Below the pieces are notes generated by a model. That model searched no databases. It had not been told where the DNA came from and was given only the letters and a program-made list of their open reading frames with translations. Below, one piece after another: positions 45,531 to 45,615 of a DNA stretch of 64,000 nt. The stretch lies in IMG/VR virus record IMGVR_UViG_2684623127_000005; one strand, 5' to 3'. Made by a program: the position numbers and the translations under genes. This stretch comes from a virus. Taxonomy: Duplodnaviria > Heunggongvirae > Uroviricota > Caudoviricetes. Position 1 is the first letter of the stretch. The number at the start of each line of letters is the position of its first letter.

Positions 45531-45590
45531 CTCTGCAAAACCTCTGCAAAACCCCTCTGCAAAACCCCTCTGCAAAACCCCTCTGCAAAA
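45531..45590. repeat. Tandem direct repeat, five copies of CTCTGCAAAA separated by C or CCC
   Basis: Read directly from the sequence; immediately downstream of the int2 3' end. Confidence 0.85.
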
Positions 45591-45615
45591 CTGGTCATCA
45601 AATGACCAGTTTTTT
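45591..45615. terminator. Perfect 8-bp hairpin (CTGGTCAT-CAA-ATGACCAG) followed by TTTTTT, overlapping the int2 stop
   Basis: Stem-loop plus T-run on the + strand; T-rich repeat units follow it on the - strand. Confidence 0.5.

Follow-up and report, generated by a model that had tools for sequence, protein, structure and literature searches.

A five-unit repeat beside the integrase gene at a tandem ompW prophage junction as a probable cluster of arm-type integrase sites

We analyzed a stretch of viral DNA of 64,000 nts (IMG/VR record IMGVR_UViG_2684623127_000005; Caudoviricetes), which is referred to below as the window. Two prophages, both lambdoid, meet in it: prophage 1 (positions 1-45406), with tail fiber, NleC-type effector and DinI-like genes to the left of the junction, and prophage 2 (45407-64000), with int, xis and exo to the right. 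The features around the junction are collected in Table 1. The integrase matched the Pfam family Arm-DNA-bind_1 (PF09003) over residues 2-71 with an E-value of 7.1e-22, and the Phage_integrase family was also matched; in addition, a full-length match to lambda Int structures was obtained (E = 9e-56), with the alignment to lambda Int running from residue 14. Homologs of the xis gene in TW14359 and PV15-279 are annotated as excisionase.

Table 1. Features at the prophage junction, with positions in the window
Feature	Position	Strand	Description
P-arm copy	45278..45288	+	single copy, TCCTGCAAAAC, in the same orientation as the array; left-hand prophage
IHF consensus	45307..45319	+	AATCAATCAGTTA; between the P-arm copy and the core
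Core	45408..45435	+	28 bp identical to the K-12 ompW attB (CAGTGTGGTACATGGATATCGATACCAC)
Phage-borne ompW 3' end	45436..45526	+	ends ...SAGYRF; TAA at 45524-45526
P' arm array	45531..45591	+	five CTCTGCAAAA(C) units
Hairpin and T6	45587..45615	.	probable bidirectional intrinsic terminator for the rebuilt ompW (+) and int (-)
int	45598..46728	-	376-aa lambda-family tyrosine integrase with an N-terminal arm-DNA-binding domain
xis	46706..46954	-	82-aa excisionase overlapping the start of int; Pfam Exc, E = 1e-7

The core was delimited by comparing the window with the empty ompW site of Escherichia coli K-12 and with attL1 and attR2 of the O157:H7 strain TW14359, and the crossover would fall somewhere within its 28 bp. 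A 126-bp ompW 3' fragment lies to the left of the repeat, and RefSeq calls the homologous stretch a partial OmpW pseudogene; its phage-borne portion supplies the last 30 codons, in DNA that has diverged from the host copy. In TW14359, two prophages are integrated in tandem in ompW in the order intact hybrid ompW, int1, the junction with the ompW' fragment, int2 and finally the original ompW 3' end followed by yciE, and at attL1 the same phage-borne sequence completes an intact ompW gene. The window contains the same kind of junction, and in this comparison the site consists of the P' arm of prophage 2, the core and the P arm of prophage 1, connected through the core. Since two tandem prophages meet here, the order is the attP-like P-core-P' and not the host-core-P' order of a plain attL. 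The earlier note had placed an attL region with arm-type binding sites at this location; comparative evidence strongly supports the arm-type sites, and the plain attL gives way to a tandem junction. The comparison with an empty locus proposed in that note was also made, and it revealed that the 28-bp core is shared with K-12 ompW and that the DNA downstream of the empty K-12 site has neither the repeat nor the hairpin.

Direct reading of the region from left to right gives tttt, five CTCTGCAAAA units with their spacers, CTGGTCAT, CAA, ATGACCAG and TTTTTT. All five units are exact; they start at positions 45531, 45542, 45555, 45568 and 45581 and are separated by C, CCC, CCC and CCC, so that the starts are 11, 13, 13 and 13 bp apart. 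Tandem Repeats Finder (TRF) reported 45531-45591 with a period of 13, 4.8 copies, 96% matches and a score of 108. The five-copy repeat with C or CCC spacers described earlier is thus real. Elsewhere in the 64-kb window, the 10-mer has three scattered one-mismatch matches, compared with 5.5 expected by chance. The array is located approximately 95-155 bp to the right of the core, with units 1-3 in positions like the canonical P'1-P'2-P'3 and units 4-5 as extra 13-bp units.

The array is followed by a hairpin with arms ctggtcat (45591-45598) and atgaccag (45602-45609), a loop caa (45599-45601) and a run of six T (45610-45615). Its perfect 8-bp stem contains four G-C pairs and, as RNA, is 12 bp long through an A4/T4 extension (AAAACUGGUCAU/AUGACCAGUUUU). 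The 106-nt plus-strand sequence folds with a dG of -19.2 kcal/mol (z = -5.3), and none of 200 shuffled sequences folded as well; on the minus strand, the fold has T4 following the same hairpin stem. Both reading and folding bear out the perfect hairpin previously noted after the repeats. The T-run, however, does not overlap the int2 stop codon as had been stated: it coincides with the final coding triplets (Lys-Lys), and it is the hairpin that spans the stop. Given the limits of the int ORF, its TGA stop occupies 45598-45600, at the boundary between the left arm and the loop.

The hairpin lies 64 nts past the ompW' stop and over the int stop codon. It is kept in the ompW-type loci, being the same in E. 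albertii and Kluyvera, with a loop change in Raoultella and a G.U pair in Salmonella, and these members have nothing between the new ompW stop and the repeats. In icd-type and other relatives, by contrast, a terminator is found between the host-gene stop and the repeats (as is annotated in the phage 21 record) and the int stop has no hairpin. Conservation restricted to the ompW type, together with the terminator that other members have before the repeats, points to a terminator for the rebuilt ompW, and the T4 that follows the stem on the minus strand suggests that it is common to the converging int. The hairpin and T-run are therefore probably an element separate from the repeats, predicted to act as a bidirectional terminator for ompW and int. 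Because the 3' end of ompW is replaced and no terminator precedes the repeats, phages of this kind would need their own terminator past the array. A simple terminator scanner did not report the hairpin, possibly because the A4/T4 stem extension leaves too few T in the tail. An Rfam scan at the gathering threshold and a tRNA scan found nothing at the repeat and hairpin locus.

The repeat word occurs once more on the other side of the core. This P-arm copy is found at an offset of -129 from the core in four independent arms, namely those of the window, TW14359 attR2, the prophage P-EibA and phage 204576, which is a free phage with an intact attP. Homology among these four arms starts exactly at the repeat word, and the sequences are unrelated further out. 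In ompW phages the copies read TCCTGCAAAAC, TTCTGCAAAAC and CTCTGCAAAAC, and an A-tract and an IHF consensus come next. By analogy with lambda P1, the copy in the window would be the outermost conserved element of the P arm. The IHF site is one of three perfect WATCAANNNNTTR matches in the 64-kb window; it is present in the other ompW-phage P arms with at most one change and in the same place in e14 and phage 21. The P arm of e14 contains GGTTATCAAAAC at -128 from the core and that of phage 21 contains TCTTTCCCCAAAAT at -130, each followed by an IHF consensus. As the word of the class is matched in the P arms of ompW phages, e14 and phage 21, it changes in both arms together within a fixed geometry in three classes. 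A P2-like second site was sought in the P arm and not found; an inverted P2 candidate beside the core had three mismatches and was not conserved, and it was dropped. No IHF site with at most one mismatch was detected in the approximately 95 bp that separate the core from the P' array. The P arm of Providencia phage PSTCR8lys gave an ambiguous match (CCACCGAAAAAAAC), which was left out of the evidence.

We also compared the copy number of the repeat across strains, using 1,728 complete E. coli genomes that carry the P' arm. Three units are present in approximately 1,440 of them, as judged from the identity band of the 3-unit allele, with which a spread sample agrees. Four units were found in at least 29 genomes (14 with exact 11/13/13 spacing and at least 15 with 11/11/13), and the 11/11/13 allele (span 249) was read directly in APEC O18. 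The five-unit allele has an exact match in nine E. coli genomes, and a six-unit allele had no match among the 1,728. The array occurs one to three times per E. coli genome, and the matches listed are all under an integrase gene. Three units with spacers C and CCC were observed in TW14359 (at both attL1 and the junction), phage 204576 and the O145 PPompW prophage. Loci from IMG/VR mostly end exactly at the int stop, and the approximately 10 of 80 that include flanking sequence all have three copies. Moreover, the tandem junction of the window is shared by 108 genomes, and five units were found there in none of the 30 listed. The earlier suggestion of a variable-number repeat is supported by these alleles of three, four (two kinds) and five units, and the array may be regarded as a VNTR of low polymorphism in which the functional triplet is the most frequent state. 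None of the standard O157 MLVA loci is known to have a 13-bp unit.

The closest relative among those listed, PV15-279, has three units. The possibility that the window is PV15-279 with an altered repeat was rejected: identity ranges from 92 to 99% by segment, with many differing positions, so that the five-copy allele belongs to a distinct strain. In the tandem pairs of other strains, the first attL has five units against three at the junction (E32511), or four against three (Rafaela_II), and the window has five at the junction. As the two arrays differ within one strain, expansions would arise independently at either copy. Eight of 1,846 matches to the P' arm plus the int 3' end are on plasmid-labelled records.

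The DNA past the int stop was then read at 80 loci, one per species, whose integrases are 48-100% identical to that of the window. Tandem repeats, usually three, lie within approximately 20 bp of the int stop in 66 of these loci (Enterobacterales); the starts are exactly 11/13 bp apart in 41 loci and 12/13 bp apart in eight. In four further loci, the triplet lies 0.6-1.4 kb from int, behind an insertion. The repeat words of the 66 loci fall into four classes, CTGCAAAA (28 loci), CCCCAAAA (20), TATCAAAA (16) and CAGTAAAA (2), with every ompW-integrating locus in the CTGCAAAA class. Each word class is paired with its own integrase N-terminus (first ~30 residues), PGLSCYTDARTKK, PNLYCKLDKRTGK, PNLYPLYSRKVNK or PNLFCFADPRTKR, and the class-specific residues align with the N-terminal region of lambda Int. 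With regard to the target, insertion at the icd 3' end was seen in 14 loci of class A, 18 of class B and 16 of class C, and class A was observed at ompW and elsewhere as well as at icd. The repeat word thus tracks the N-terminal domain of the integrase and not the host target gene. Between classes, mean integrase identity is 0.56 in the N-terminal domain and 0.57 in the rest of the protein; within a class, the N-terminal domain is better conserved (0.79 versus 0.67). The motif and the N-terminal domain are inherited together, so that their association partly reflects shared ancestry and not independent co-variation.

The number of units also varies from two to five in other species, and Yersinia pekkanenii has a duplicated 24-bp block. 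About ten relatives have no recognizable triplet within 1.4 kb of int; these may be degraded prophages, carry larger insertions or belong to another word class. In e14 (positions 1440-1478 of one of the two e14 sequences that were read) and in four other species, the triplet is found beside the host-gene fragment and int is 0.6-3 kb away. Since int has been pushed away by inserted genes in each of these cases, the gap between the P' sites and int seems to be a recurrent insertion point for cargo.

The layout in the window is closely paralleled by phage 21. The GenBank record of that phage describes its triplet with the words 'attP consists of 3 subsites P1P2P3; consensus YYTTCCCCAAAA'. Like the window, phage 21 has three co-oriented units spaced 11/13 that abut the int stop, an additional copy approximately 130 bp to the left of the core with an A-tract and IHF site after it, and a replacement host-gene 3' end inside attP. 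It reportedly needs 'repeated dodecamers' in attP, which Wang et al. are said to have proposed as arm sites in 1997. The two differ in the repeat word (TCCCCAAAA in phage 21, CTGCAAAA in the window), the target gene (icd versus ompW), the number of units (three versus five) and the terminator, which precedes the sites in phage 21 and follows them in the window, overlapping the int stop. An integrase of the phage 21 class (83% identical to phage 21 Int) is approximately 52% identical to PPompW Int. The K-12 element e14 (intE, in icd) has the same plan, with the P' words GGTTATCAAAA, TTTTATCAAAA and AGTTATCAAAAC; however, its array is split from int by ymfD, ymfE and lit, and it has its own word and target gene. 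The integrase gene is also called intE in PPompW records.

In phage lambda as in the window, Int is heterobivalent, with its arm-binding domain at the N-terminus; three P' sites follow one another directly up to the int stop; and a P1 site in the same orientation, the counterpart of the copy at -129 here, lies approximately 130-135 bp to the left of the core, beside an IHF site. In contrast, the lambda P' sites are spaced by approximately 10/11 bp (11/13 here), their consensus C/AAGTCACTAT is unrelated, and they start approximately 55 bp from the core with a recognizable H' site between, compared with approximately 110 bp for the P' sites of the window. Lambda also has an inverted P2, the counterpart of which was not found in the P arm of the window, and it integrates between genes and hence carries no replacement coding sequence. 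The roles of the lambda arm-type sites have been described (PMC4880445). The PPompW prophages of STEC and EPEC, which are inserted in ompW (Nakamura et al. 2021, PMC8112680), are of the same prophage type as the one studied here, with the same integrase and target, and their tandem and nested clusters are described in that work. The att duplication is delimited there as well (121 bp in O145:H28), a search of the main text found arm-type sites mentioned nowhere, and the deposited genomes have the three-copy allele.

Taken as a whole, the repeat is very likely the P' arm cluster of arm-type sites for the adjacent integrase, a member of the lambda Int family from the branch that includes phage 21, e14 and PPompW. 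This reading is based on the conserved triplet, the P-arm copy at a fixed offset, the link between the repeat word and the N-terminal domain, and the annotation of phage 21. The ancestral layout comprises three co-oriented sites 11 and 13 bp apart against the int stop codon and, on the far side, one co-oriented site approximately 129 bp past the core, with an A-tract and an IHF site after it. Arm-site clusters of the phage 21 / e14 / lambda type are known as such; the one in the window has a rare two-unit expansion, and its terminator is placed in a way that is particular to the phages integrating in ompW. If Int works here as it does in lambda, its N-terminal domain would bind the repeat words and its C-terminal domains would hold the core in ompW, bending proteins would fold the arms back, and Int would bridge arm and core in both integration and excision.

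With respect to the expansion, the 13-bp unit CTCTGCAAAACCC would have been duplicated twice, most simply by replication slippage, resulting in five sites. Since the canonical three sites keep their distance from the core and the extra units are added toward int, the expansion is probably close to neutral and tolerated. It could also be imagined that slippage among three, four and five units serves as a contingency switch, altering the capture of Int or the geometry of the intasome and thereby tuning excision and integration, which we consider unlikely. If such a switch existed, the stability and mobility of effector prophages in O157-type lineages would be affected, including which member of a tandem pair excises.

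Other explanations of the array were weighed against that of arm-type sites. It might be a functionless, slippage-prone microsatellite, that is, a pure VNTR that lies at the prophage end by chance, and such an element would account for both the differences among strains (three, four and five copies) and the identity of the units, which is what recent slippage would give. However, three units at 11/13 bp beside int are maintained in dozens of species although the word has changed four times, and the same word is found once more at a fixed offset in the P arm. In addition, three copies dominate among the genomes, unlike the spread of a free-running VNTR. Neutrality is likely for the two extra units only, and for the array as a whole this explanation seems very improbable. 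If the array were a REP/BIME-like repeat from host intergenic DNA, or a degenerate CRISPR-like array, and had no relation to the prophage, nothing but its repeated nature would speak for it; the likelihood of this reading is negligible. The earlier note had itself brought up a common host intergenic element, an objection that failed: the array is absent from the empty K-12 ompW site, occurs nowhere else in the window and is restricted to a few copies per genome, with the listed matches all under an integrase gene. The note had also excluded CRISPR, and correctly so, since the units are 10-11 bp long and separated by C or CCC with no unique spacer, whereas CRISPR repeats are approximately 24-48 bp.

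A role at the RNA level was considered as well, with the array acting in the 3' UTR of the rebuilt ompW or in read-through int RNA, for example by binding Hfq, a small RNA or an RNase. As the repeats of ompW-type phages follow the ompW' stop with no terminator in between, the array should be co-transcribed with ompW at attL, and the units in minus-strand RNA can pair in alternative ways. Nevertheless, the icd-type arrays, including that of phage 21, are downstream of a terminator and thus outside the host transcript, no Rfam family matches the region, and both the P-arm copy and the link to the N-terminal domain of Int would be left unexplained; we hold such a role to be highly implausible. 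The units could also be binding sites for another protein, such as the excisionase, Fis, a phage repressor or an iteron-type replication protein. Xis sites and iterons, too, are typically short direct repeats in tandem, and xis adjoins int here. In lambda, however, it is the P arm, and not P', that contains the Xis sites (PMC4880445), and three P' sites plus a distal P site are the signature of arm-type Int sites. Together with the class-specific residues in the Int N-terminal domain and the annotation of the phage 21 homologs as attP subsites, this makes binding by another protein very unlikely, and arm-type sites for the integrase remain the preferred explanation.

As an arm-site cluster, the repeat is likely control DNA of the prophages that integrate in ompW. 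These prophages are frequent in enteropathogenic and Shiga-toxin-producing E. coli and contain genes for type III effectors. The proposed attP would start at the P-arm copy (-129) and finish where the array does. A simple rule, namely three sites 11 and 13 bp apart beside int and one approximately 129 bp past the core, applied to each of the three att sites for which both arms were checked, and its int-side half to 66 of 80 loci. This rule could be of use in defining where prophages end and in predicting which integrases cross-react, and the copy-number variants constitute a natural series for the question of how many P' sites such an integrase needs. Current understanding is not overturned by these results.

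Several further elements were observed in the window. At the right end of prophage 1, a collagen-repeat tail fiber gene (41230-42549), an NleC-type zinc protease effector gene (43250-44236), which is intact here and frameshifted in PV15-279, and a DinI-like gene (44608-44856, minus strand) were found. An 823-aa exonuclease-like ORF in prophage 2 (47019-49490, minus strand) contains a 21-bp tandem repeat (47856-47963; 5.1 copies, 73% matches), and this may be a coding-length polymorphism, as the two TW14359 homologs of the ORF differ by 27 bp. Matches to prophage RNAs in Rfam comprise isrK and a C4 antisense RNA, two STnc100 (one per prophage), DicF (minus strand) and sok, at 7416-7604, 16447-16661, 50134-50185, 57394-57569 and 62513-62713. 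Finally, three tRNA genes (Met, Arg and Arg) are located at 14790-15041.
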